Below, piece after piece: positions 8,466-25,640 of a stretch of DNA of 64,000 bases. The notes beneath the pieces are model-generated. The model worked only from the letters and a program-made list of their open reading frames with translations. It was not told where the DNA came from and ran no database searches. The translations under genes and the position numbers were made by a program. The stretch comes from an uncultured cyanobacterium (GTDB lineage: Bacteria > Cyanobacteriota > Cyanobacteriia > Cyanobacteriales > CAWCAG01). Positions within the stretch are counted from its first letter, which is position 1. Each line of letters starts with the position of its first letter. The stretch covers positions 64,001 through 128,000 of the forward strand of contig CAWDOD010000005.1 in NCBI GenBank assembly GCA_963803805.1, given 5' to 3'.

Positions 8466-9794
8466 TTAAGCTAGCCAAGCACGAATCTTTTGTACTAGCC
8501 AAATCAGTTCTGCTTCTTTTAATCTTTTACCAAAGTAGTTTTTATTAAATAATTCTGTATGGGATGGGTTAGAGACAATAATAATGCCTCTGGCATTAGA
8601 AGAAGAACTTAGATAGTAAATGGAAACATCCTGAATTGCTTTAGTTATGCCGACTTGTTTACTGAGGTAAAAACCTAGAAACTTCTTGCTAATTGTAAAA
8701 GTGTCTTGGGATAATTCTAGTCTGGTTTCCGCAAACAGGGGTTCTTTAGTCAGAATTAATATTAATAAGACTAAACCTATAGGTGGCGCAACAAATAACA
8801 AACAGGCTAAAACAACAATTGTTACTGGTGCAGGTATTTTATCAAACTTTAAACGTGGAGGAATAATAATCTTTAATTGTTCTGGAGTTTGAGCAATCTT
8901 AATGGTAGTTTTAACAGGGGGAGGCAGTTGACCAAGATTATAGTAGGAAGATGCGGGAATAGCTTCTGTTTCTGCTTCTAGGGCTTGTAAAGCTTGGGTG
9001 GCAGATTGAAAGCGGTTTTCTGGGGCTGGTTGGGTGGCTTTTTCTAACCAACTGATAAAATTGCTGCTCACGCTTTGTTGAGAGAGGCGATCGCGAAATT
9101 GCAACTTTAATTCTTTTTGGGGTATATCTCCTGGGGCAACACCCCCTAAAAGATGAATAATCGTTGCCCCCAAAGCATAGAGATCCGAAGCAGGAATTGC
9201 TCTTCCGCCGTATTGTTCCATAGGTGCATAGCCGTAGGTTCCTACAATCGTAAAAGTTACCCCTTCGGTAGCGGCTTTGTCTTGAACTGCACCAAAATCC
9301 ACTAAATATATTTGGTCATTTTCTCCTAAAATCAAATTACTCGGCTTAATATCGCGATGAAGTAAAATGGGATTGAGGCTATGAAGATAAATGAGAATTT
9401 CTAGAATCTCTTTAGTTATTTGCTGAACTTTAGCTTCAGTTAATCTTTTGCTTTCATTTAATAACTGTTTAAGGGAAGAACCAGGAATATATTCTTGTAC
9501 TAACCCAAACCAAAGAAAGCGATCATCTACAGAAAAGTAATCATAATATTTCGGTATTTGACTATTCTGAAGCTGCTGAAGAATCTTTGCTTCTCTTTCA
9601 AAAAGTTTGAGGTCGTCCCATTGAACATCTCCACCAAAGGCAAGTAACTTCACCACAGACAAGCGTTCAGGTATCTGCAAATCTTCAGCTAACCACGTTT
9701 GTCTTCCGGCATTTTGACCTAACTTTTTAATTAGTTTGTAGCGATTATGTAAGATTTGTTGTGCTGCAAGCATAATATCTAAGCTGTTAGGCAT
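8466..9794 (-). CDS. Hanks-type Ser/Thr protein kinase with C-terminal TM region
   Basis: VVKLL, HRDIKPSN, DFGA, GTYGYAPMEQ, SDLYALG. Confidence 0.92.
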   Translation of the reverse strand: MPNSLDIMLAAQQILHNRYKLIKKLGQNAGRQTWLAEDLQIPERLSVVKLLAFGGDVQWDDLKLFEREAKILQQLQNSQIPKYYDYFSVDDRFLWFGLVQEYIPGSSLKQLLNESKRLTEAKVQQITKEILEILIYLHSLNPILLHRDIKPSNLILGENDQIYLVDFGAVQDKAATEGVTFTIVGTYGYAPMEQYGGRAIPASDLYALGATIIHLLGGVAPGDIPQKELKLQFRDRLSQQSVSSNFISWLEKATQPAPENRFQSATQALQALEAETEAIPASSYYNLGQLPPPVKTTIKIAQTPEQLKIIIPPRLKFDKIPAPVTIVVLACLLFVAPPIGLVLLILILTKEPLFAETRLELSQDTFTISKKFLGFYLSKQVGITKAIQDVSIYYLSSSSNARGIIIVSNPSHTELFNKNYFGKRLKEAELIWLVQKIRAWLA

Positions 9795-9953
9795 TTAGAT
9801 TAGTTATTAGGGTCAGGAAATAGGGAAAAACCTAAGATTCAGTTCTATAAATTATTGATAAACGCTACTATTACCATCATAGTCTATCAATTTAACCAAC
9901 GAGCTAACACTGATAAATGTTTAATATTCAATGATAAATGGTATTAGCTGCCT

Positions 9954-11222
9954 ATGCCAGTCACAGCATTTTTCCAGGGAATTTTGGGTGCATCAAGTCT
10001 TGCCTTTGGAGCCTTTGTTGGGGTTGTTTGGCGACCTCGTAGGTTGTTTTCTGCTGCTATTATGGCATTTGGCAGCGGAACCTTACTCGCGGCGATCGCC
10101 TTTGAAATTTCTCTTCCGGTTTATAAAAACGACGGCTTTTTACCTCTGATTATTGGTTTTATGATCGGGGGAAGTTTATTTGTTTATTTGACTCAATATA
10201 TTGACCAACAAGGTGGTTTCTTGCGTAAACCAGCTTCTAGCCGTCGCTATCTTTACGAACACCGTAGTGATAAACATACCGACGTACTCAGCCGTATTTC
10301 CCACATAGAGGTAATGCAAAACCTCCCCGATGAAGAAAGAAAGGCATTAGCCCCTTTATTAAAAGCTAAAAACGTTCCTGCTGGAGAAATTCTTTGTGAA
10401 GAAGGCCATCCGGGGGAATACTTTTATATGATTGTTAGCGGGGAAGCAGAAGTTCGTAAAGGGCGCAAGGTGTTATCTCATCTAAAACCGGGGGAAGTAT
10501 TCGGGGAGATGTCTTTATTAACCGGAGAACCCCGTTCGGCGACCATTATATCCCGAACTCCTATGGAATTGTACCAATTACACCAAGAACATTTCGGCAG
10601 TGTCTTAAGTTGGTCACCTCATATGGCTTGGGCTTTGAGTCGTTCCTTAGCCCGTCGCTTACGCATTGCTACTGAATCGCGAGTTGCTGTAGAAGATAAT
10701 TTAGATCGTTGGCGACAGCAGTTAATGGATCAAGTTGAACTAGATATTTTAATGCGTGAAGATCCTAGTATCTTGGAAGGATTAGTAGAAAGTTCAGCGC
10801 CTTTAGCCATTATGGTAGGGACTTTAATTGATAATATCCCGGAAGCAGCAACCATCGGGCTGAATGCCGAAAATCCTCATTTAGGTTGGTCTTTTATTTT
10901 AGCTGTCTTTATTTCCAACTTTCCCGAAGCCTTATCTAGCGCTGCTGGGATGCAACAAGCAGGAACCTCCAAGGTACAAATTCTATCTCTTTGGTTAGGA
11001 ATTGTCATCTTAAGTGGGTTTTGTGCTGCTGCGGCTTATTCTGTACAAGGTTATCTACCAGAAACATTTGTGAGTTTAATTCAATCAATCGCCGGGGGAG
11101 CAATCCTCGCCATGTTAGCTAGTACGATGATGCCAGAAGCCTATGAGTTAGGAGGTGGCTATGTTGCTTTTTCAACGATTATGGGTTTCTTACTAGGTTT
11201 TTGGGTTTCTTTCGTCCACTAG
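9954..11222 (+). CDS. ZIP (GufA-like) metal transporter with an inserted cyclic-nucleotide-binding domain
   Basis: TM1-3 (IMAFGSGTLLAAIAFE), cNMP domain (EGHPGEYFYMIVSGEAEV; FGEMSLLTGEPRSAT), then TM4-8 (LIDNIPE, FISNFPEALSS, AGGAILAMLASTMMPEAYE). Confidence 0.85.
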   Translation: MPVTAFFQGILGASSLAFGAFVGVVWRPRRLFSAAIMAFGSGTLLAAIAFEISLPVYKNDGFLPLIIGFMIGGSLFVYLTQYIDQQGGFLRKPASSRRYLYEHRSDKHTDVLSRISHIEVMQNLPDEERKALAPLLKAKNVPAGEILCEEGHPGEYFYMIVSGEAEVRKGRKVLSHLKPGEVFGEMSLLTGEPRSATIISRTPMELYQLHQEHFGSVLSWSPHMAWALSRSLARRLRIATESRVAVEDNLDRWRQQLMDQVELDILMREDPSILEGLVESSAPLAIMVGTLIDNIPEAATIGLNAENPHLGWSFILAVFISNFPEALSSAAGMQQAGTSKVQILSLWLGIVILSGFCAAAAYSVQGYLPETFVSLIQSIAGGAILAMLASTMMPEAYELGGGYVAFSTIMGFLLGFWVSFVH

Positions 11223-11278: not shown

Positions 11279-11548
11279 TTATATGCGTTTTAGTAACTCA
11301 TCATATTCAGAGTGAGTTCCTATCCAAAACCAATAAATGTGGTTTTCTTCTAACAATCCTAGCGCTCTATAATTGAGACTGACACGAACTGAATAAATAG
11401 GCTGGCGTTGGCTGACTCGCTTAAATTGTAGGCTTCCATGAAATGGGTCGGTTTTCCACAGAGCATATGCTTTATTAGCTTGCTCACGAACAGAGTTTGG
11501 TAGCTGGTTAAGGAGCTTACGAAAATCTCTAGTAGTACTCGATTTCAT
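11279..11548 (-). CDS. RelE/ParE-superfamily toxin
   Basis: 89 aa, basic; DPFHGSLQFKRV, YSVRVSLNYRALG, WFWIGTHSEYD. Confidence 0.8.
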   Translation of the reverse strand: MKSSTTRDFRKLLNQLPNSVREQANKAYALWKTDPFHGSLQFKRVSQRQPIYSVRVSLNYRALGLLEENHIYWFWIGTHSEYDELLKRI

Positions 11549-11775
11549 TGTCCAACTGGGAAAACTTCATCAAGCGGTATAACCTCACCAACCAAAATTT
11601 CCTGCCGTACTAAAGTTGCCATATCATCCCACTGTTTGTCAGTTGTAGCGTCAAAGCAATTTTGCCAAGCTTGCTCGTCTTCTAACTCAGCAAGAAGCCT
11701 TGTTGCGATCGCATCTTGTTGCTCATCTGATAGCTTTGAAATCTTTGTAATAACTTGCTGGAGGAGTTCTGTCAT
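11545..11775 (-). CDS. Putative antitoxin
   Basis: 76 aa, acidic (EQQDAIA..LLAELEDEQAW); 4-nt overlap with the downstream toxin. Confidence 0.75.
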   Translation of the reverse strand: MTELLQQVITKISKLSDEQQDAIATRLLAELEDEQAWQNCFDATTDKQWDDMATLVRQEILVGEVIPLDEVFPVGQ

Positions 11776-13905: not shown

Positions 13906-14250
13906 TTATGAAGCTACGGCAAAATCTGTGTACTGTCTCATTTTTGGCTCATGAAATGCTAAAACAATATCTTCTTTAGAAACACCTGCATCAACCAAAT
14001 CATTGGCGATGCCATCTTCAGTCCAATCCTCCTCGATCCAAAATTTACCATCTACAATCCGAACATAGACTGTCATACCAGCAACGCGCTCACCACCCTG
14101 CCAACCAAGATTCATCCAAATGTAATGAGCTTTTAATTCATCGACAATTAAAAACGTCTCTATATCTGAGTTATGATGGCGGTTACTTAGTTCTGTATAC
14201 TCACTCAAAATACCTTTAATTAGCTTAGGATATTCAGTTAGTTTATCCAT
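13906..14250 (-). CDS. xisI: XisI family protein
   Basis: MDKL..Y, GKFWIEEDWTEDGIANDLVDAGVSKEDIVLAFH. Confidence 0.92.
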   Translation of the reverse strand: MDKLTEYPKLIKGILSEYTELSNRHHNSDIETFLIVDELKAHYIWMNLGWQGGERVAGMTVYVRIVDGKFWIEEDWTEDGIANDLVDAGVSKEDIVLAFHEPKMRQYTDFAVAS

Positions 14251-14657
14251 TTTGTGATCTCCTCTGACTCGATGTCTACCACAATGATAGAAAGTTGGTG
14301 TTTCTTCAGAATGAGTTGAGCCACATCTCCGGTAAAGAAAGTTTTGTAAGCTATTTTGCTGATAGCCATATATAACTTTCGCTCTGGTGCTGTTTCCTCC
14401 AAAAGATAACTGTAGATATCATATTGCCCAAGAGCTTCTTTAAAGTCCTGTATTTTCGATGCACCAATAAAGCTTTTGACTTCCACAACTAGCTTTTGTC
14501 CATCTCGTTCAACCCCAATCGGACGTTCAGCACCAAGATCAGCATAGAGTGTTGTCCTTCGATACTTAATGATATAAGGATCATCAGTGATTAACCATCC
14601 GTCCTTAATCAAAGCATTTTTCACCGAATTATGAATACTATCTAGCTTGGGCATCAA
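14238..14657 (-). CDS. xisH: XisH family protein (PD-(D/E)XK fold)
   Basis: HNSVKNALIKDGWLITDDP, DLGAE, VEVKSF, ALGQY; overlaps xisI. Confidence 0.92.
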   Translation of the reverse strand: MMPKLDSIHNSVKNALIKDGWLITDDPYIIKYRRTTLYADLGAERPIGVERDGQKLVVEVKSFIGASKIQDFKEALGQYDIYSYLLEETAPERKLYMAISKIAYKTFFTGDVAQLILKKHQLSIIVVDIESEEITKWIN

Positions 14658-15579: not shown

Positions 15580-17208
15580 TTACTCCCACTCAATAGTCCC
15601 AGGTGGTTTAGAAGTAATATCATAAACCACTCGATTAACTCCATCTACCTCATTCACAATGCGGTTAGAGATAGTTTCTAACAACTCGTAGGGAACACGG
15701 GACCAGTCGGCTGTCATGCCATCTTCGCTGGAAATTAAACGTAGGACGATAGGATGGGCATAGGTACGCTGATCTCCCATTACTCCCACGCTACGAACAG
15801 GTAATAGCACAGCGAAGGCTTGCCAAAAGTCATGATACATTCCTTGCTTGCCAATTTCATCCCGGACAATGTAGTCTGCATCCCGGAGGATATTGAGCCT
15901 TTCTGGGGTTACTTCGCCGATGATGCGAATTGCTAAACCAGGGCCAGGAAAAGGATGGCGGCGAACAATCTCTTTGGGCAAACCGATAGAAAGAGCGACT
16001 TTGCGTACTTCATCTTTAAAAAGTTTGCGTAGGGGTTCAACGAGCTTAAAGCGTAAATCTTTTGGCAAACCACCGACATTATGATGGCTCTTGATTTTCA
16101 CTGCAACCCTTTCTCCAGTTTGAGGATCAACGTTAGTATCAGCAGACTCAATTACGTCAGGATAAAGGGTTCCTTGGGCTAAATAATCGAAGGGTCCCAA
16201 ACGCTTAGATTCTTCTTCAAAGACATGGATGAATTCATGGCCGATGCGACGGCGTTTTTCTTCTGGATCGGTGATGCCTTTGACTTTGGCGAGAAATCTA
16301 TCCCTGGCATTGATGTATTCAACAGAGATATGGAAGCGTCTAGCAAAGATGTCCATTAGTCTTTCTGGTTCACCTTTACGCATGAAGCCCTGATCAATGA
16401 ACATACAAGTTAGTTGATCACCAATGGCACGATGAAGTAGAAAGGCGAGGGTAGAAGAGTCAACGCCTCCAGAAAGGGCTAATAAAACTCGTTTTTCCCC
16501 TACTTTGGCACGAATTTCCCGAATGGATTCAGTGACAAAGGTTTCTGTTGTCCAAGTTGGTTCACATTTGCAAACATCATAGACAAAGTTGCGGATCAGT
16601 TCCATGCCGCCGATGGAGTGGACAACTTCTGGGTGAAACTGTACGCCGTAAAACCTTTTTTCGTGGTTGGCAATCGCCGCACAACGGGTATTTTCTGTGT
16701 GGGCGAGAATTTCAAAGCCAGGGGGTAAGGAAGTGCAAGAATCCCCATGGCTCATCCACATGGTTGAGCCGTTTTTGATTTTTTGTAAAGTTATGTTGGG
16801 GTTGTCGATGATTAGGGAAGCTTTGCCATATTCAGCCCGTTGAGCGCGTTCAACTTTCCCCCTAATTGCTTAACCATAAGCTGCATTCCATAGCAAACTC
16901 CCATGACGGGAACTCCTAATTCCCAAATTTTGGGATCACATTGAGGAGCGCCTTTGTCATAAACTGAGTTTGGTCCGACCGGACAAAATGATCCCCGATG
17001 GGTTAAGCTGTTTAAGCTGTTCGGCGGTGGTGCGATAGGAAAGTACTTCGGAGTAGACTTGGGTTTCGCGAATGCGACGGGCAATTAGTTCTGAGTATTG
17101 AGAGCCAAAGTCGAGGATGATCACGATTTGGCGATTGAGGCTGGTTTTCCGAGGAACCTTGGGTAAAGTTTCTACAGGTGGATGCACTTGTTGAATTGAA
17201 ATAGTCAC
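15580..17208 (-). CDS. guaA: GMP synthase (glutamine-hydrolysing), split by two frameshifts
   Basis: ILDFGSQY (ORF 16957-17208), GVCYGMQ (ORF 16812-17084), [21 protein letters not shown] (ORF 15580-16761); indels at ~16977 and ~16855-16862. Confidence 0.93.
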
Positions 17209-17237
17209 GAGATCCTGATGAATTGTAGATGTGAATG

Positions 17238-17271
17238 AAAAATAAAGCCGCTACTACCTTGGGTAGAGGCT
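17238..17271 (-). terminator. Terminator-like hairpin between cbiD and guaA
   Basis: Minus strand AGCC-T-CTACC-CAA-GGTAG-TAGC-GGCT followed by TTATTTTT. Confidence 0.35.
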
Positions 17272-18857: not shown

Positions 18858-20108
18858 ATGGATAAACCTGTAATTATTTGTGTCGATGATGAAAGAGTTG
18901 TGCTAATCAGCCTCCGGGATCAACTGATTCAACACTTAGGTAACAAATATGAAATAGAATTAGCTGAAAGTGGGCAAGAAGCTTTAGAGATTCTAGAAGA
19001 ATTAACTGAAGAAGGAATTGAAGTTCCTTTAATTATTTCTGATCAAATTATGCCGGCCATGAAAGGGGACGAATTACTCGTAGAAATTCAAGATAAATAC
19101 CCCCAAACCCTAAAAATAATGTTAACGGGCCAAGCTAGTGTTGATGCTGTAGGTAAGGCAGTTAATTTAGCTAATCTTTACCGTTATTTGGCTAAACCTT
19201 GGCAGATAGAGGATTTGAAGTTTACTGTTCAAGAAGCCCTTAATAGTTACTTTCAAAATAAAAAGCTTTCTGAGCAAAATACTCAACTCATAGAACTCAA
19301 TAAAGCTTTATCTCGTTTTGTTCCTAGTCAGTTTCTGCAATTATTAGATAAAGATAGTATTACCGATATTCAATTAGGTAATTCAGTGCAGAAGGAAATG
19401 TCAATACTTTTTGCTGATATTCGTAACTTTACTTCTTTATCTGAAGCCATGACACCGGAGGATAACTTTAAGTTTATTAACGGTTATCTTTCCCGTATGG
19501 AACCAGCTATTATTGACAATAATGGCTTCATTGATAAGTACATTGGCGATGCGATCATGGCTTTGTTTGGAGGCAGTGCTGATGATGCTTTACAAGCAGG
19601 GATTGATATGTTGAAAATTCTCCACATATATAATAAAACTCGCCACAGTCCCAACAGAGAACCCCTTAAAATTGGCATTGGTATCAATACAGGACAATTG
19701 ATGTTAGGAACAATTGGTGGGAGTTCGCGTATTGATAGTACTGTAATTAGCGATGCTGTCAACTTGGCTTCTCGTTTAGAAGGACTAACTAAACGCTATG
19801 GAGTCTCCTTATTAATTACGCAACAAACCTTTCATTTACTTAAAAATCGCCATCAATATGCCATTCGTTTTATTGATAAAGTTCAAGTTAAAGGCAAATC
19901 AGAATTAGTCACCATTTATGAAGTTTTTGAAACAGATGAAGCCAGCATTAAGGAGAGTAAAAAAGCAACACAATCTTTTTTTGAACAGGCTTGGCTACTC
20001 TATAATCAACACTCTTTTCAGGAAGCCAAACGACTTTTTACTACTTGTCTAGAAATAAGTCCTCAAGATAAAGTAGCTCGGTTTTATCTTAAAAAATGCC
20101 GCATTTAG
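18858..20108 (+). CDS. Receiver domain + class III adenylate cyclase + TPR-like tail
   Basis: ICVDDE..ISDQIMP..MLTG..AKPW receiver; FADIRNFT, DKYIGDAIM, TVISDAVNLASRLE. Confidence 0.9.
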   Translation: MDKPVIICVDDERVVLISLRDQLIQHLGNKYEIELAESGQEALEILEELTEEGIEVPLIISDQIMPAMKGDELLVEIQDKYPQTLKIMLTGQASVDAVGKAVNLANLYRYLAKPWQIEDLKFTVQEALNSYFQNKKLSEQNTQLIELNKALSRFVPSQFLQLLDKDSITDIQLGNSVQKEMSILFADIRNFTSLSEAMTPEDNFKFINGYLSRMEPAIIDNNGFIDKYIGDAIMALFGGSADDALQAGIDMLKILHIYNKTRHSPNREPLKIGIGINTGQLMLGTIGGSSRIDSTVISDAVNLASRLEGLTKRYGVSLLITQQTFHLLKNRHQYAIRFIDKVQVKGKSELVTIYEVFETDEASIKESKKATQSFFEQAWLLYNQHSFQEAKRLFTTCLEISPQDKVARFYLKKCRI

Positions 20109-20187: not shown

Positions 20188-23100
20188 ATGCTACAAATCA
20201 AGTCTATCATCACCAACATATCCAGGAAAACTCCCTTACGAACAGTTCTAATTGTTCCCTTTGTTGTCCAAATTTTCGCAGCAGTAGGATTAGTCGGCTA
20301 TCTTTCTTTTCGTAATGGGCAACGGGCTGTTGCTGATTTGGTCAATCAGTTAACCGCAGAAACCAGCGCCCGTATTGAACAGCACGTTATCAATTATCTC
20401 AACAAATCCCAGGATACCCTGTGGCTTAATCAGGGAGCCGTTCAAAGTGGTAACTTAGACCTTAATGACTTTGAAAAATTACGGCGTTATTTCTGGCAAG
20501 TAGTTCATGAAGGGGATTACGAGGGATATCTTTCCTATGGCAATGAACAGGGAGAATTTGTTGGTGTTGAGTATCGCGAAGATGCCACGGTTCAGCTTAA
20601 AATCAGAACCAGTGCCATTGCTCCTCAGCGAGAAACCTATTTATTAGATGAGCGAGGTGAGCCGAAAGAGCTATTAAAAGCTTCTGAATATGACCCCCGC
20701 ACTCGCCCTTGGTACAAAGCAGCTAAGGAGGCAAGAAAGGCTACCTGGAGTGAGATATATCCTTTCTTTTCTAGCAAAAATACCATCCTAGGAATTTCCC
20801 CTGTCTATCCTCTTTATGATGCTCAGGGTAAGCTATTGGGAGTGCTATGTATCAATGTTAGACTGACTAGGATTACGGATTTTATCAATCATTTATCTAT
20901 TAGCCCTAATGGACAAAGTTTTATTATGGAGCGATCAGGTGATTTGGTTGCTGGTTCAGAAATTCCTCAACCTTTCAAAATAATCGGTGAAGAGGAAGAT
21001 AGTGAAATTGAGAGAATTCCAGCCGTTGCCAGTGATAATCCTGTGGTTAAGGCAACAGCTCAACATCTCCTAGAAAGCTTTGGTGGCTTCGGAAATATTA
21101 AGGAGAGTGAACATCTAAAATTTCAAGTGGACGGAGCCTGGTACTATGTTCAGGTGCTACCAATTCAAGATGGGCGTGGCATAGACTGGTTAACAGTGGT
21201 AGTTGTGCCAGAGCAAGATTTTATGGGGGAAATTAATAAAAACGCCCATACAACCATCTTTTTGTGTTTAGCAGCTTTAGCCATAGCCACCAGCGTCGGC
21301 ATCATTACTTCTCGCTGGGTTATTGATCCTATTTTACGTCTCAATGCTTCTGCAAAGGCTATTGCCAAGGGAGAGTGGCAGCAAACCCCTGTTAGTAAAC
21401 GCTCCGACGAGTTAGGGGAACTAGCTACTTCCTTTAATAGTATGGCTCGGCAACTACAAGCTTCCTTTACCACCTTAGAAACCAAAAACCAAGCACTACA
21501 AGAGTTTGACCAACTCAAAGACGAATTTCTTGCCAACACTTCCCATGAACTACGTACTCCACTCAACGGTATGATTGGCATTGCAGAGTCGATGATTGAT
21601 GGTGCAATCGGGGAACTATCCTCACCACAAATGCAAAATTTGGCACTCATTGCTCAAAGTGGACACCGCTTAGCAACCTTAGTTAATGATATCCTCGACT
21701 TTTCCAAGCTTAGGCACAAGAACATTGAATTGCAGCTAAAACCAGTGGGTTTGCGAGCTATTGTTGAAGTTGTTTTGACCCTCAACCAAACCTTGTTAAG
21801 GGGGAGAGATATTCAACTCATCAACTCTGTACCTCTTGATTTACCGGCTGTGAAAGCTGATGAAAATCGTCTGCAACAGATTCTTCACAACCTCATTGGC
21901 AATGCTATTAAATTTACTGAACAAGGTTCTATAGAAGTTGACGCTGAACTCAAAAACGATAACCAAGACATTGCTATTACTATCTCGGATACAGGTATTG
22001 GCATCCCTACCAACAAACTAGACAGCATTTTCAGTTCATTTGAACAAGCTGATGGTTCCACTGCCAGGGAATATGGTGGTACGGGCTTAGGTTTAGCAGT
22101 GACGAAAAAGTTAGTGGAGTTGCATGGAGGGAAAATTTGGGTCAATTCTTCTGTGGGAGAAGGAGCGGAATTTCACTTTACTTTGCCTGTTTCCTCCTTA
22201 CAAGCTCCAGCTTATAGTATTGAATCAGCCTTAGCTACTCGCTTTGTTCCTAAACTACTAGATTCAGAACAGGTAGACATAAACAATAGTCTGCCATCCT
22301 TTCAGCAAAATGGCTTCAAAATTCTCATTGTTGATGATGAACCTGTTAATCTCCAAGTTCTCGTTAATCATCTATGCTTAGAAAATTATGTTATTACTCA
22401 AGCTAATAATGGTCAGGAAGCCCTTGCCGTCTTAGAAAATGGCTTGCGACCCGATGTTATTTTACTTGATGTCATGATGCCCAAAATGACAGGTTATGAA
22501 GTATGTACAGAAATTCGCAAAAAGTTCCCTGCCAACGAACTACCAATTTTAATGTTAACCGCTAAAAATCAGGTTAACGATTTAGTACAAGGATTGGGAG
22601 TAGGAGCGAATGATTATCTGACCAAGCCTATTAATAAAAATGAATTATTAGCACGTTTAAAAATTCACCTCGAACTAGCAAATATTAGCATAGCCTACGG
22701 TCGATTTGTTCCCCATCAATTTCTTGATTTCTTAAACAAAGAAAGTATTGTTGATGTGAAACTAGGAGATGAAGTAGAAAAAGAAATGTCGGTACTTTTT
22801 TCTGATATTCGTAACTTCACAAGTCTTTCAGAAAAAATGACCCCGGAAGATAATTTTAAGTTTATCAACGGTTTCTTTTCTCGCATGGAACCAGCAATCT
22901 TGGAAAATAATGGCTTTGTGGATAAGTATATTGGTGATGCAATTATGGCTTTGTTTAGTGGTTGTGCCGATGATGCAGTAAAAGCAGGGATTTCTATGTT
23001 AGAAAGGCTCAAGGAATATAACTTAACTCGGCAAAGACCAGACAGAGAGTCTTTAAGAATTGGTATTGGTATTAATACCGGTAATTTGATGCTAGGAACT

Positions 23101-23517
23101 GTAGGGGGAGAAAGTAGGATGGATGGGACGGTAATTAGCGATGCTGTTAATTTAGCTTCCCGTGTTGAAAGTATTACCAAAGATTATGGAGTTGCTTTAT
23201 TAATTACTCAAGCAACTTTTAGCCAATTAAAAAATTCTGATGATTATAATATCCGGATTATTGCTCAAGTTCAAGTCAAAGGTAAATCGCAAACTACTTT
23301 AGTTTATGAAGTATTTGATGCTGATCCTCCTCATATTAAAGCCCAGAAAGTAGCAACTAAAGAATTATTTGAAGAAGCGCGATCCCTCTATGAAAATAGT
23401 ACTTGGGGTGAAGCCGCAGAGTTATTTACCCGTTGTTTACAACAAAACCCAGAGGATAAGGTGGCACGAATTTATTTAGAACGTTGTGGGCAAGAGGGAT
23501 TAATAGTTAATAGCTGA
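20188..23517 (+). CDS. Membrane hybrid sensor: Cache-HAMP-histidine kinase-receiver-adenylate cyclase
   Basis: TM, YDPRTRPWY (Cache), DELGELATSFNSM (HAMP), SHELRTPL, NLIGNAIKFT, GGTGLGL, LLDVMMP, FSDIRNFT, DKYIGDAIM, DAVNLASR. Confidence 0.92.
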   Translation: MLQIKSIITNISRKTPLRTVLIVPFVVQIFAAVGLVGYLSFRNGQRAVADLVNQLTAETSARIEQHVINYLNKSQDTLWLNQGAVQSGNLDLNDFEKLRRYFWQVVHEGDYEGYLSYGNEQGEFVGVEYREDATVQLKIRTSAIAPQRETYLLDERGEPKELLKASEYDPRTRPWYKAAKEARKATWSEIYPFFSSKNTILGISPVYPLYDAQGKLLGVLCINVRLTRITDFINHLSISPNGQSFIMERSGDLVAGSEIPQPFKIIGEEEDSEIERIPAVASDNPVVKATAQHLLESFGGFGNIKESEHLKFQVDGAWYYVQVLPIQDGRGIDWLTVVVVPEQDFMGEINKNAHTTIFLCLAALAIATSVGIITSRWVIDPILRLNASAKAIAKGEWQQTPVSKRSDELGELATSFNSMARQLQASFTTLETKNQALQEFDQLKDEFLANTSHELRTPLNGMIGIAESMIDGAIGELSSPQMQNLALIAQSGHRLATLVNDILDFSKLRHKNIELQLKPVGLRAIVEVVLTLNQTLLRGRDIQLINSVPLDLPAVKADENRLQQILHNLIGNAIKFTEQGSIEVDAELKNDNQDIAITISDTGIGIPTNKLDSIFSSFEQADGSTAREYGGTGLGLAVTKKLVELHGGKIWVNSSVGEGAEFHFTLPVSSLQAPAYSIESALATRFVPKLLDSEQVDINNSLPSFQQNGFKILIVDDEPVNLQVLVNHLCLENYVITQANNGQEALAVLENGLRPDVILLDVMMPKMTGYEVCTEIRKKFPANELPILMLTAKNQVNDLVQGLGVGANDYLTKPINKNELLARLKIHLELANISIAYGRFVPHQFLDFLNKESIVDVKLGDEVEKEMSVLFSDIRNFTSLSEKMTPEDNFKFINGFFSRMEPAILENNGFVDKYIGDAIMALFSGCADDAVKAGISMLERLKEYNLTRQRPDRESLRIGIGINTGNLMLGTVGGESRMDGTVISDAVNLASRVESITKDYGVALLITQATFSQLKNSDDYNIRIIAQVQVKGKSQTTLVYEVFDADPPHIKAQKVATKELFEEARSLYENSTWGEAAELFTRCLQQNPEDKVARIYLERCGQEGLIVNS

Positions 23518-23583
23518 TACTAACTTAAACTTTGTACAATATTACTAATACCCTTGTTAAGCCTTGCAAAATATAGAGCAGAA

Positions 23584-25640
23584 ATGATCGAAAATCCTTT
23601 ATTAATTGGTTCGGGACTACCACCTTTTGAGCAAATTACACCAGAACAGGTAGTTCCGGCAATAACTCAACTTTTAACAGAATTAGAAACAGAACTTACT
23701 ACCTTAGAAGCAAATGTTACCCCTACTTGGTCTGGTTTAGTAGAACCCCTTACTCATATTGAAGAACGTTTACGTTGGACTTGGGGCATTGTTGGGCATT
23801 TAATGGGGGTGAAAAATAGCCCCCAGTTACGGGAAGCACAACAGCAAGTTCAGCCGGAAGTGGTAAAGTTTATTAGTCGGTTGAATCAAAGCAAACCTAT
23901 CTACGAAGCTTTTAAAGCCCTTGAAACAGGCAAAGACTTTAAATCTCTTCAACCTGCCCAAAAGCGTATTGTTGAAGCTGCTATCAAGGATGCAGAGCTT
24001 GCTGGCATTGCCTTAGAAGGGGAAAAGCGAAATCGCTTCAATCAAATTCAACTTGAACTTGCGGAGTTGGGGACGAAGTTTTCTAACCATGTTTTGGATG
24101 CCACCAAAACCTTTAGCCTAACCTTAACTACCCCTGAAGAAGTCGCAGGCTTGCCAGCAAGTTTGTTGAGTTTGGCTGCTCAAGCTGCAACCGAAGCAGG
24201 AGTTGAAGCAGCTACAGCAGAAAAAGCCCTTGGCGCATTACTTTAGATTATCCTAGTTATGTTCCTTTCCTTAAATATAGTCAGCGTGGGGATTTAAGGG
24301 AGAAACTATATAAAGCTTTTGTTAGTCGCGCTTCAGAAGGAGAATTAGATAATAATCCTCTGATTCAACGTATCTTGGAGTTACGCCAAGAAAAAGCTAA
24401 CTTACTCGGATTTTCTAGCTATGCTCAATTAAGTTTAAGCAAAAAAATGGCTCCCGATGTAGCAGCAGTAGAAAAACTCTTAGAAGAGTTACGGCAGGTT
24501 AGTTATGAAGCAGCAAAGGCAGAGTTTGCTGATTTGCAAAGCTACGCTGGCAAAGAAGAATTGCATCATTGGGATATTAGCTATTGGGCCGAAAAACAAC
24601 AGGAAGAGAAGTTTGCTTTTAATGAAGAAGAATTACGCCCCTACTTTCCCTTACCCCAAGTATTAGAGGGTTTATTCAATTTAAGTAAGCATCTTTTTGG
24701 TATCACTATTACCCCCGCCGATGGGCAAGCCCCCCTGTGGCACGAAGATGTACGTTATTTTCAAATTGCTAACGAAACAGGAGATGCGATCGCCAGCTTT
24801 TACCTCGATCCTTATAGTCGCCCTAGTGAGAAACGCGGTGGCGCCTGGATGGATGAGTGTTTAACCCGTGCCAAACTCCATGATGGACTACGCTTACCCG
24901 TTGCTTATTTAGTTTGCAACCAAACTCCCCCAGTAGCTGACAAACCTAGCTTAATGACTTTTAATGAAGTAGAAACCCTCTTCCACGAATTTGGCCATGG
25001 TTTGCAACATATGCTCACCCAAGTAGACTATCCGGGGGCAGCAGGGATTAACAATGTCGAATGGGATGCGGTGGAATTGCCGAGCCAATTTATGGAAAAT
25101 TGGTGTTATCATCGCCCTACCCTGTTTGGTATGGCGAAGCATTACGAAACAGGGGAAACCTTGCCAGAGCATTATTACCACAAACTAAAAGCAGCTAAAA
25201 ATTATCGGAGTGGTACAGCAATGTTGCGCCAACTCTACTTTAGTAAGTTGGATCTAGAATTGCATCACCGCTATGAACCTCAAGGTAAAGAAACTCCCCA
25301 AGATGTTAGAAACCGGGTAGCCCAAACTACCACAGTTTTACCTCCTTTACCAGAAGACTCTTTTCTTTGTGCTTTCAGCCACATTTTTGCTGGGGGCTAT
25401 GCCGCTGGGTACTATAGCTATAAATGGGCAGAAGTGCTTAGTTCTGATGCTTTCGCTGCTTTTGAAGAAGCAGGGCTGAGTAATGATAGTGCGATCGCTG
25501 CTATCGGCAAACGTTTTCGAGATACAGTCTTGGCATTAGGAGGTAGCATTCATCCTTTGGCAGTTTTTCAAGCTTTTCGAGGGCGAGAACCTCAAACTGA
25601 ACCTTTGTTAAGACATAGTGGGCTAGTTATTGCCAATTAG
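23584..25640 (+). CDS. prlC: Oligopeptidase A (M3 metallopeptidase), split by one frameshift
   Basis: NPLL start, HEFGHGLQH, ELPSQFMENW, GYYSYKWAE. One extra base at ~24226 restores KGPWRITLDYPSY. Confidence 0.9.

Follow-up and report, generated by a model that had tools for sequence, protein, structure and literature searches.

The gene described here occupies positions 9954..11222 of a 64,000-nucleotide stretch of DNA from an uncultured cyanobacterium (contig CAWDOD010000005.1, positions 64,001 to 128,000), which was analysed as a whole and is hereafter called the window. Its product is almost certainly a membrane protein with the fold of ZIP metal transporters and an intact cyclic-nucleotide-binding domain (CNBD) in the loop between transmembrane helices (TM) 3 and 4; it is referred to below as the ZIP-CNBD protein. 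A homolog search showed it to be colinear with proteins of about 420 residues across 98-100% of its length, and the overlapping 72-residue open reading frame (ORF) in another frame (9931..10149) was without any support. Features of the gene and its surroundings are collected in Table 1.

Table 1. Location of the ZIP-CNBD gene, its parts and selected neighbours in the window
Feature	Position	Strand	Basis or detail
Whole gene, 422-residue ZIP-fold membrane protein with CNBD in TM3-TM4 loop	9954..11222	+	ATG start, translation
TM1-TM3, N-terminal ZIP part, residues 2-85	9957..10208	+	helices at pLDDT 77-90
Basic linker from TM3 to CNBD, residues 86-112, GGFLRKPASSRRY conserved	10209..10289	+	alignment, model
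CNBD including C-helix, residues 113-240	10290..10673	+	Pfam PF00027, PDB matches
Phosphate-binding cassette FGEMSLLTGEPRSAT, residues 183-197	10500..10544	+	translation
Helical linker from CNBD C-helix to TM4, residues 243-269, LDRWRQQ conserved	10680..10760	+	model, low confidence
TM4-TM8, C-terminal ZIP part, residues 271-421	10764..11216	+	Pfam Zip, BLASTP
TM4 metal-site motif DNIPE, residues 293-297	10830..10844	+	translation, alignment to HNFPE
TM5 metal-site motif SNFPE, residues 321-325	10914..10928	+	translation, alignment to QNLPE
TM7 motif MMPEAYE, residues 392-398	11127..11147	+	alignment to EIIPESH of bona fide ZIP
Ser/Thr kinase gene, divergent from ZIP-CNBD gene	8466..9794	-	
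Intergenic region of 159 bp, presumed promoter region, shared with divergent kinase gene	9795..9953	.	
REC-cyclase gene, class III	18858..20108	+	catalytic domain 19392-19913
dCache-HAMP-HisKA-HATPase-REC-cyclase gene, class III	20188..23517	+	catalytic domain 22780-23298

The AlphaFold2 model, built from 28 homologs (mean predicted local distance difference test score, pLDDT, 73.4; predicted template-modelling score, pTM, 0.56), displayed three helices at residues 2-25, 30-60 and 62-85 (TM1-3), a beta-roll at about residues 113-240, a helix at 243-269 and, after this linker, five helices at 271-303, 308-335, 340-365, 370-400 and 402-421 (TM4-8). The TM helices and the beta-roll were modelled with confidence (block means of pLDDT 77-90). 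This order, confirmed by both Pfam and AlphaFold2, is the one that an earlier reading of the sequence (the original prediction) had assigned to the ORF, namely three TM helices, a cyclic nucleotide monophosphate (cNMP) domain with its C-helix and then five TM helices. Residues G87, G88, F89, R91, R97, R98 and Y99 of the basic linker were invariant among 28 aligned sequences, the set to which invariance refers throughout; in the helical linker W253 was invariant and D264 nearly so. The loop as a whole (residues 86-270) contained eight scattered His residues (103, 108, 117, 152, 176, 210, 213 and 223) and, as the checked translation confirmed, none of the clusters whose absence had been predicted.

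The membrane part is a ZIP fold from a divergent subfamily. In a structural search of 48,161 PDB representative chains, carried out without dependence on Foldseek, the top match was BbZIP (7z6m_A; Z 20.8, root-mean-square deviation (rmsd) 2.3 Å, 201/238 residues, 19% identity), in an alignment spanning residues 1..394 of the predicted model, where eight TM helices in a 3 + 5 arrangement could be superposed. BbZIP was the sole membrane-protein fold among the best 50 structural matches, all others being CNBD or CRP-family entries, so that structure prediction upheld the ZIP assignment made from the sequence. A Foldseek search of the PDB using the complete model was uninformative on the membrane part, the matches listed being all CNBD proteins. 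At the family level, 26 of 28 orthologs matched Pfam Zip at E <= 0.01 (best 2.2e-9), subfamily relatives of the same architecture exceeded its cutoff of 35.1 bits (P0183 57.6, P0178 55.0, P0197 51.7 and P0218 46.9 bits), and residues 13-96 of relative P0145 matched the N-terminal part of the profile (positions 12-101).

A bona fide ZIP of the same genome, of ZupT/GufA type (257 residues, L081:1183-1956, 83 bits on Pfam Zip), provided a second anchor. BLASTP aligned residues 25-81 of the ZIP-CNBD protein with its residues 25-92 and residues 292-418 with 124-248 (E 3e-5), and profile-to-sequence hhalign agreed (probability 63%, E 6.9e-5). Since TM2-3 and TM4-8 were thus colinear on both sides, the insert falls between what correspond to TM3 and TM4. 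The two proteins differed by an identity of only about 26%, by some 180 extra TM3-TM4 loop residues in the ZIP-CNBD protein and by their motifs, HNFPEG, QNLPEG and EEIIPES becoming DNIPEA, SNFPEA and TMMPEAY. The genome contained a third, weak match to Pfam Zip (L082, G000:C11:681143-681361; 21.3 bits, profile positions 32-101, in a 249-residue open frame), which could be another divergent ZIP-like protein.

The same BLASTP alignment placed DNIPE opposite HNFPE(G), SNFPE opposite QNLPE(G) and MMPEAYE opposite EIIPESH, the paired x-N-x-P-E motifs of TM4 and TM5 being in register with those of the bona fide ZIP. In TM4, D293, P296 and E297 were invariant, D293 replacing the His of HNFPEG, and in TM5 N322, F323, P324 and E325 were likewise invariant. 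The TM7 motif was present in 135/139 orthologs, with M392, M393, E395 and E398 invariant. A TM4 His of this kind is typical of many ZIPs without defining the superfamily. The TM4 position corresponding to H177 of BbZIP was Asp here and in 147/150 subfamily representatives, TM5 position 321 was Ser in 107/150 and Ala in 41/150, and no form of the subfamily among these 150 displayed His at the TM4 or TM5 site positions. In aligned TM2, the Met of the bona fide ZIP (GGGVMLAATAF) was Leu (GSGTLLAAIAF). According to the available part of the BbZIP study (PMC9873690), H177 (alpha4) and M99 (alpha2) are ligands of the M1 site, and H275 and E276 of alpha7 bind metal in the release path; MMPEAYE would be the equivalent of this alpha7 site.

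Translation and alignment therefore agreed with the earlier observation that the transport motifs (DNIPE, SNFPE) are without His. This loss is a trait of the subfamily, unlinked to the CNBD insertion, since plain forms of 245 residues share the Asp/Ser-Ala signature. The putative all-oxygen ligand set (Asp, Glu, Ser and Asn for His, Gln and Met) suggests a cation harder than Zn2+, with Mn2+ or Fe2+ and possibly Mg2+ or Ca2+ as candidate substrates. The proposal that the substrate may not be Zn stays reasonable. Its companion in the original prediction, second-messenger control in place of direct metal sensing, is a conjecture now that the His loss has proved a subfamily trait.

The inserted domain was recognised by Pfam cNMP_binding (PF00027) at residues 139-218 (E 4e-22, 78.4 bits for a cutoff of 27.5), as it was in 28/28 orthologs. 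Its sequence matches in the PDB were PKG, PKA-R and MloK1 (E down to 1.9e-28), with 32% identity to the MloK1 CNBD and 28% to the CNB-B domain of PKA-R. Structural matches to 49 CNBD/CRP-family entries (Z 19.1-13.6) covered model residues 101-244, the best being SpIH (2ptm_A; Z 19.1, rmsd 2.2 Å, 136 residues), and the CNBD matches of the Foldseek search reached E ~1e-8 and TM-scores up to 0.83 (target-normalised), both the beta-roll and the C-helix of the fold being present. The cassette runs from F183 through R194 to T197 and contains the Gly-Glu and Arg-[Ser/Thr]-Ala elements; the roles of its residues are known from the PKA and CAP literature. Residues F183, G184, E185, M186, L189, R194, S195, A196 and T197 were invariant (28/28), and GE...RSA was kept in 136/139 retrieved orthologs at 54-79% identity. 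Score, ortholog matches and alignment together bear out the intact CNBD with a canonical cassette that had been proposed for the TM3-TM4 loop. Conservation of this kind speaks for selection on ligand binding, and the CNBD of the cyanobacterial clade looks like a true cNMP binder, which many of its subfamily cousins probably are not.

The subfamily itself proved large. Among 1.84 billion cluster representatives, a profile of TM4-8 matched 2,663 proteins at E <= 1e-3, of which 1,137 also passed E <= 1e-10. By length, the best 150 formed three classes (about 245, 430 and 610 residues), always with a C-terminal profile match. All were scanned with Pfam (E <= 1e-3 / E <= 1e-4) and tallied by hand: cNMP_binding was found in 77, of which 31 carried two domains, Zip only in 52, no family in 20 and another family in one. 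The split architecture whose distribution had been in question thus occurred in 77/150 representatives. Proteins P0130 (409 residues), P0222 (690 residues) and P0260 (520 residues) had the size expected of insert-bearing forms and no Pfam family at the thresholds used; inserted domains that Pfam does not recognise may fill the loop site in them. Tandem-CNB relatives of about 605-613 residues (e.g. P0138, P0145, P0146, P0154, P0159 and P0164) displayed non-canonical cassettes in 28/31 cases, mostly with Arg replaced by His and Glu lost (e.g. FGMMAFLTGCPHQTV). The loop concerned is normally rich in His and senses metal; as far as these cassettes tell, the tandem modules in it may have been adapted to a different ligand.

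Members of the subfamily included 445-residue proteins from metagenome-assembled genomes of Deltaproteobacteria, a plain 247-residue "ZIP family metal transporter" of Bacillales, MMETSP eukaryotic transcripts of 695 residues and a 925-residue protein of Chromera velia named ZIP11 by UniRef; sibling clusters of about 430-440 residues in the protein atlas were labelled Pseudomonadota and Bacteroidota. Forms with one or two CNB domains reached Deltaproteobacteria, the Pseudomonadota- and Bacteroidota-labelled clusters, eukaryotic algae and alveolates, and the ZIP + CNBD architecture is neither rare nor specific to cyanobacteria. No NCBIfam model named the subfamily among 10 plain and 2 CNBD relatives scanned, which displayed only sub-threshold resemblance to ZupT (30-49 bits for the closest plain relatives).

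A tree of the membrane half was built from 140 columns and 101 of 151 rows, the other 50 being dropped as fragments or for ambiguous architecture. Plain, one-CNBD and two-CNBD forms were clustered, supported branches forced at least five changes between plain and CNBD-bearing forms, and the clade of the 9954..11222 protein lay in a supported grouping made up of 33 plain and 8 single-CNBD rows. With 53/98 branches unresolved, the tree is read only as indicating that CNBD-bearing forms had not a single clean origin. Orthologs were patchy in the phylum, occurring in 11/401 sampled genomes and 7/156 genera (E <= 1e-40). Cultured carriers of the gene included Rippkaea orientalis PCC 8801, Coleofasciculus chthonoplastes, Nodosilinea nodulosa PCC 7104 and Leptolyngbya sp. 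PCC 6406. A homolog search seeded with a member from the Microcystaceae returned a protein of Synechocystis sp. LKSZ1 and none of strain PCC 6803 among the best 120, which is not proof of absence. Synechocystis slr0842 was rejected as a family member, being a cNMP-EAL protein according to the available text of PMC10124867. The "cAMP binding membrane protein" slr0593 is described as down under Fe deprivation in the accessible part of PMC3516471, and no link between it and the ZIP-CNBD family could be made.

Around the gene, the window carries a divergent Ser/Thr kinase gene, a DUF2301 gene and an HPPD-like dioxygenase gene. The intergenic region displayed a weak sigma-70-like site at 9855-9883, in a promoter/terminator scan whose yield of sites did not exceed that of shuffled sequences. 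Convergent with the ZIP-CNBD gene (11279-11775, minus strand), an 89-residue ParE-like toxin ORF overlaps by 4 bases an upstream 76-residue ORF without Pfam match, and the pair looks like a toxin-antitoxin system. The two cyclase genes that the original prediction had placed 8-12 kb away were indeed present, with catalytic domains 8.2-12.1 kb past the end of the ZIP-CNBD gene; since these domains are 74% identical, the adjacent genes look like a tandem duplication. This 5.3 Mb genome holds 17 CNB domains and 37 cyclase domains of class III, and the number of cyclase domains expected by chance within +-12 kb was 0.17 (P ~0.15 for at least one).

Gene context was further compared in 80 related loci, drawn from 598 candidate stretches of which at least 525 were confirmed; 77/80 titles name a cyanobacterium. 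An apparent "cyclase" BLAST cluster (24 sources) was discarded as a single-linkage artefact of multi-domain GAF, histidine-kinase and REC proteins. The only metal-related neighbours were an Nramp (MntH-like) gene, which in Tumidithrix follows on the same strand after 268 bp (L022:2912-4279, plus strand; 1/80 loci), and a CDF cation-efflux gene, convergent downstream in 4/80 loci of Halomicronema/Oscillatoria type (L040:9269-10240, minus strand, L055, L070 and L074); both hint weakly at a role in metal handling. Immediately upstream of the ortholog, 42/80 loci (within L032-L080, e.g. L068:2765-3337 and L063:7340-7918, both on the minus strand) carried a divergent gene whose product of about 190 residues, with identity down to about 36%, had no Pfam match. 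It was confined to the Leptolyngbya, Nodosilinea and Halomicronema group and absent beside the gene of the window; in 15/80 loci a rhodanese gene lay between it and the ortholog.

Three other regions of the window deserve mention. The GMP synthase ORF at 15580..16761 (minus strand) covered the 190-position GATase profile only from position 126 onwards; in the guaA region (15580-17250, minus strand) the stop-to-stop frame extends to 16869 and other frames contain further open stretches at 16812-17084 and 16957-17250, which may reflect a frameshift, a pseudogene or a sequencing error. An M3 oligopeptidase (23524-25640, plus strand) is divided between two ORFs; these lie in different frames, share 24207-24246 and carry, respectively, the TOP_N domain and Peptidase_M3 from profile position 40, which again looks like a frameshift. 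A XisI and XisH gene pair occupies 13906-14657 (minus strand).

The interpretation that we favour is that a cyclic nucleotide regulates cation transport through the ZIP-CNBD protein, and we consider this probable, if well short of certain. With comparable confidence, the protein would be a cyclic AMP (cAMP)-regulated, elevator-type divalent-cation transporter from a His-less ZIP subfamily. The signalling capacity of the genome, set by the cyclase and CNB domains counted above, was weighed in its favour, and, given what is known of cyanobacterial signalling, cAMP is most likely the ligand.

A mechanism can be proposed from BbZIP, in which, as the accessible text of its study describes (PMC9873690), helices alpha1/4/5/6 form the transport domain and alpha2/3/7/8 the scaffold, through which the protein also dimerises; upon metal release, alpha4 moves away from alpha3 and alpha7 at its cytoplasmic end, and packing of an N-terminal helix on alpha3/alpha4 restrains movement, its deletion being hyperactivating. 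Because TM3 belongs to the scaffold and TM4 to the transport domain there, a CNBD tied to TM3 on its N-terminal side and to TM4 on its C-terminal side would bridge the sliding interface. Its C-helix would lead, by way of the conserved helical linker (about 27 residues), into the TM4 that bears the putative metal ligands D293 and E297. A nucleotide bound at the cassette (G184, E185, R194, S195 and A196) would reposition the C-helix or lid, and this motion, reaching the cytoplasmic end of TM4 through the linker, would either free or clamp the transport domain; the change in TM4 freedom would then switch metal flux across whichever membrane hosts the protein.

A bolder version is possible but rather doubtful. 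Here cAMP would directly clutch the elevator, making it the first recognised ligand-gated metal elevator and joining the entry of a hard cation, be it Mn2+, Fe2+ or even Ca2+ or Mg2+, to light or carbon signals in cyanobacteria; the hinge between scaffold and transport domain would be a modular regulatory socket for zero, one or two CNB modules, repeatedly gained or lost across the His-less subfamily in bacteria and eukaryotic algae, and the tandem modules with Arg changed to His would maybe be intracellular metal sensors.

Several observations weigh against regulated transport as proposed here. Both linkers were poorly modelled (pLDDT <50 at residues 87-108, 240-246 and 252-280); we infer the coupling geometry across them, beyond what the model shows, because the parts that would carry the signal are its worst-modelled ones. 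The protein's own Pfam Zip score was 19.9 bits (E 4.9e-4) for the cutoff given above, in a match of TM4-8 only (residues 286-418, profile positions 181-318 of 323), and since this is below threshold its ZIP identity rests on the fold, the family-level match and the alignment with the bona fide ZIP. A HMMER profile of TM4-8 run against PDB sequences at E <= 10 returned five unrelated weak matches and no ZIP, so that the link to BbZIP is structural only. NCBIfam detected only distant resemblance to CRP, Pat and ZupT, and the ZupT score (NF003243, 19 bits for a cutoff of 252) rules out a ZupT ortholog. As for ligand and context, cAMP and cGMP are not distinguishable from the cassette. In 9795-9953 neither a Zur-like box (TGATAATNATTATCA, <=3 mismatches) nor a CRP-like box (TGTGA-N6-TCACA, <=2 mismatches) was found, and their counts in the window were at chance level. 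No neighbour was conserved family-wide across the 80 related loci, and a cyclase domain occurred within +-8 kb of the ortholog in only one of them (L015, with the catalytic domain alone as query); this figure, with the chance probability given above, lends no support to a linkage between the two cyclases and the gene, which had been raised as unproven.

The degenerate cassettes of the wider subfamily count on the same side. The Gly-Glu...Arg triad was missing in 19/46 single-CNB and 28/31 tandem-CNB proteins, mostly through replacement of Arg by His, so that CNB modules placed at this site are able to serve other purposes than cNMP binding. These proteins also favour an alternative in which the inserted domain is a CNB-homology module outside cAMP/cGMP signalling, with a constitutive structural or dimerisation role or as a sensor of another nucleotide, a metal or a metabolite; transport would then be governed by that ligand or be unregulated. 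In the same direction, 12/28 family members cross-matched the model of the CNNM2 CNBH domain (best E 2.4e-5), which we take to sit on a metal transporter and not to bind cNMP, and the structural neighbours included the cUMP-binding CNBD of PycTIR (8jsk_B; Z 18.6, rmsd 3.2 Å, 139 residues), so that other nucleotides are possible. Yet the cassette was canonical and invariant in the cyanobacterial clade (28/28 and 136/139), and the domain matched the cNMP-binding PKG, PKA and MloK1 at the E-values given above; we accordingly judge this alternative unlikely, although it is the one that survives best.

Somewhat less probable again is a protein regulated by cNMP in which the membrane part forms a path for Mg2+ or Ca2+, or a ligand-gated, channel-like structure, converting cAMP into a cation signal and not serving trace-metal supply. 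The replacement of soft His and Gln ligands by Asp, Ser and Asn would fit such a path, as would the Leu at the TM2 position equivalent to M99, the M1 ligand of BbZIP in the available text (PMC9873690), the lack of a Zur box in 9795-9953 and the absence of a subfamily name among NCBIfam models. Soft ligands are not absent, however, since M392 and M393 are invariant beside the TM7 carboxylates, and the adjacency of Nramp (1/80) and CDF (4/80) genes points to transition metals. We know of no ZIP that carries Ca2+ or Mg2+.

It is very improbable that the membrane domain is transport-dead and serves as a membrane-anchored cAMP receptor or buffer, or as a transceptor to partners such as the divergent Ser/Thr kinase: a kinase domain 63% identical to that of the window does adjoin the ortholog in Moorena (L017), and some records name orthologs "protein kinase", which looks like a misnomer from "cAMP-dependent protein kinase regulatory chain", but a kinase occurred within +-8 kb in only 5/80 loci and the invariance of D293, E297, N322, E325, E395 and E398, with Asp in 147/150, would be hard to explain without transport.

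The ZIP-CNBD protein can be set beside several known systems. With BbZIP, the elevator ZIP prototype from Bordetella bronchiseptica (7z6m, 5tsb), it shares the 8-TM fold, the Pro-kinked x-N-x-P-E motifs of TM4 and TM5 and a cytoplasmic TM3-TM4 connection that joins scaffold to transport domain (available part of PMC9873690). It differs by the Asp in place of H177, by a 128-residue CNBD and helical linker where BbZIP has a short or disordered loop, and by the lack of HMMER-detectable sequence similarity from the TM4-8 profile. The MloK1/SthK/HCN/CNG channels display the same CNBD fold (Z 18-19 to SthK and SpIH), a nearly identical cassette and, likewise, a cNMP sensor fused to a membrane transport protein through a helical connector. 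Unlike the presumed ZIP elevator, however, they are tetrameric channels of six TM helices; their CNBD is C-terminal and receives a C-linker from S6, whereas here it is inserted between TM3 and TM4 and its C-helix feeds a TM helix. The ZIP-CNBD protein displayed no six-TM, voltage-gated-like pore, as structural matches to whole channels covered only the CNBD (model ranges 99-256).

The CNNM/CorC Mg2+ transporters also combine divalent-cation transport with a CNB-like fold, which is C-terminal; their membrane fold is unrelated, and the CNNM CNBH domain is not known to have a functional cassette, unlike the canonical one found here. The sperm Na+/H+ exchanger SLC9C1 is a secondary transporter with a CNBD (9ydf_A; Z 16.0, rmsd 3.5 Å, 130 residues), and MFS transporter-CNBD fusions, named in the available text of PMC10710835, provide a further precedent. 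In both cases folds and substrates are different and the CNBD is a C-terminal appendage, not an insertion within the membrane domain.

In a full-text literature search, which left subscription journals mostly outside its coverage so that an older description is possible, no ZIP with a CNBD was found described, in keeping with the original prediction that no cNMP-regulated ZIP has been characterised. The accessible text of the transporter-regulation review that names the MFS fusions (PMC10710835) mentions ZIP/ZupT 0 times. The main text of the CNB-domain survey of Kannan et al. (PMC2246266) contains neither "ZIP" nor "zinc", the architecture being possibly listed in its supplements, and the part of the Arthrospira genome paper that lists cNMP-binding architectures (PMC2853384) gives none with ZIP. 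In databases, orthologs are called "cyclic nucleotide-binding domain-containing protein", "CRP-like cAMP-binding protein" or, wrongly, "protein kinase". The ZIP + CNBD architecture is thus real, conserved, widespread and visible in domain databases, and uncharacterised in the literature searched. It combines two known kinds, ZIP transporters and membrane proteins regulated by a CNBD, and creates no new category.

This study defined a large and unnamed His-less ZIP subfamily. Post-translational regulation of ZIPs and gating of their elevator are poorly understood, and the TM3-TM4 loop, usually disordered and His-rich, has been suspected of a regulatory role; the ZIP-CNBD protein carries at this very site a well-understood allosteric switch of known ligand class. 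It thereby offers a tractable natural system, in which the ligand is small and soluble and point mutants provide simple controls, for asking whether a restraint on TM4 relative to the scaffold governs transport in ZIPs. If the proposed regulation is true, cyanobacterial cAMP signalling, with dozens of cyclases encoded per genome and few known effectors, would gain a direct output that bypasses transcription.

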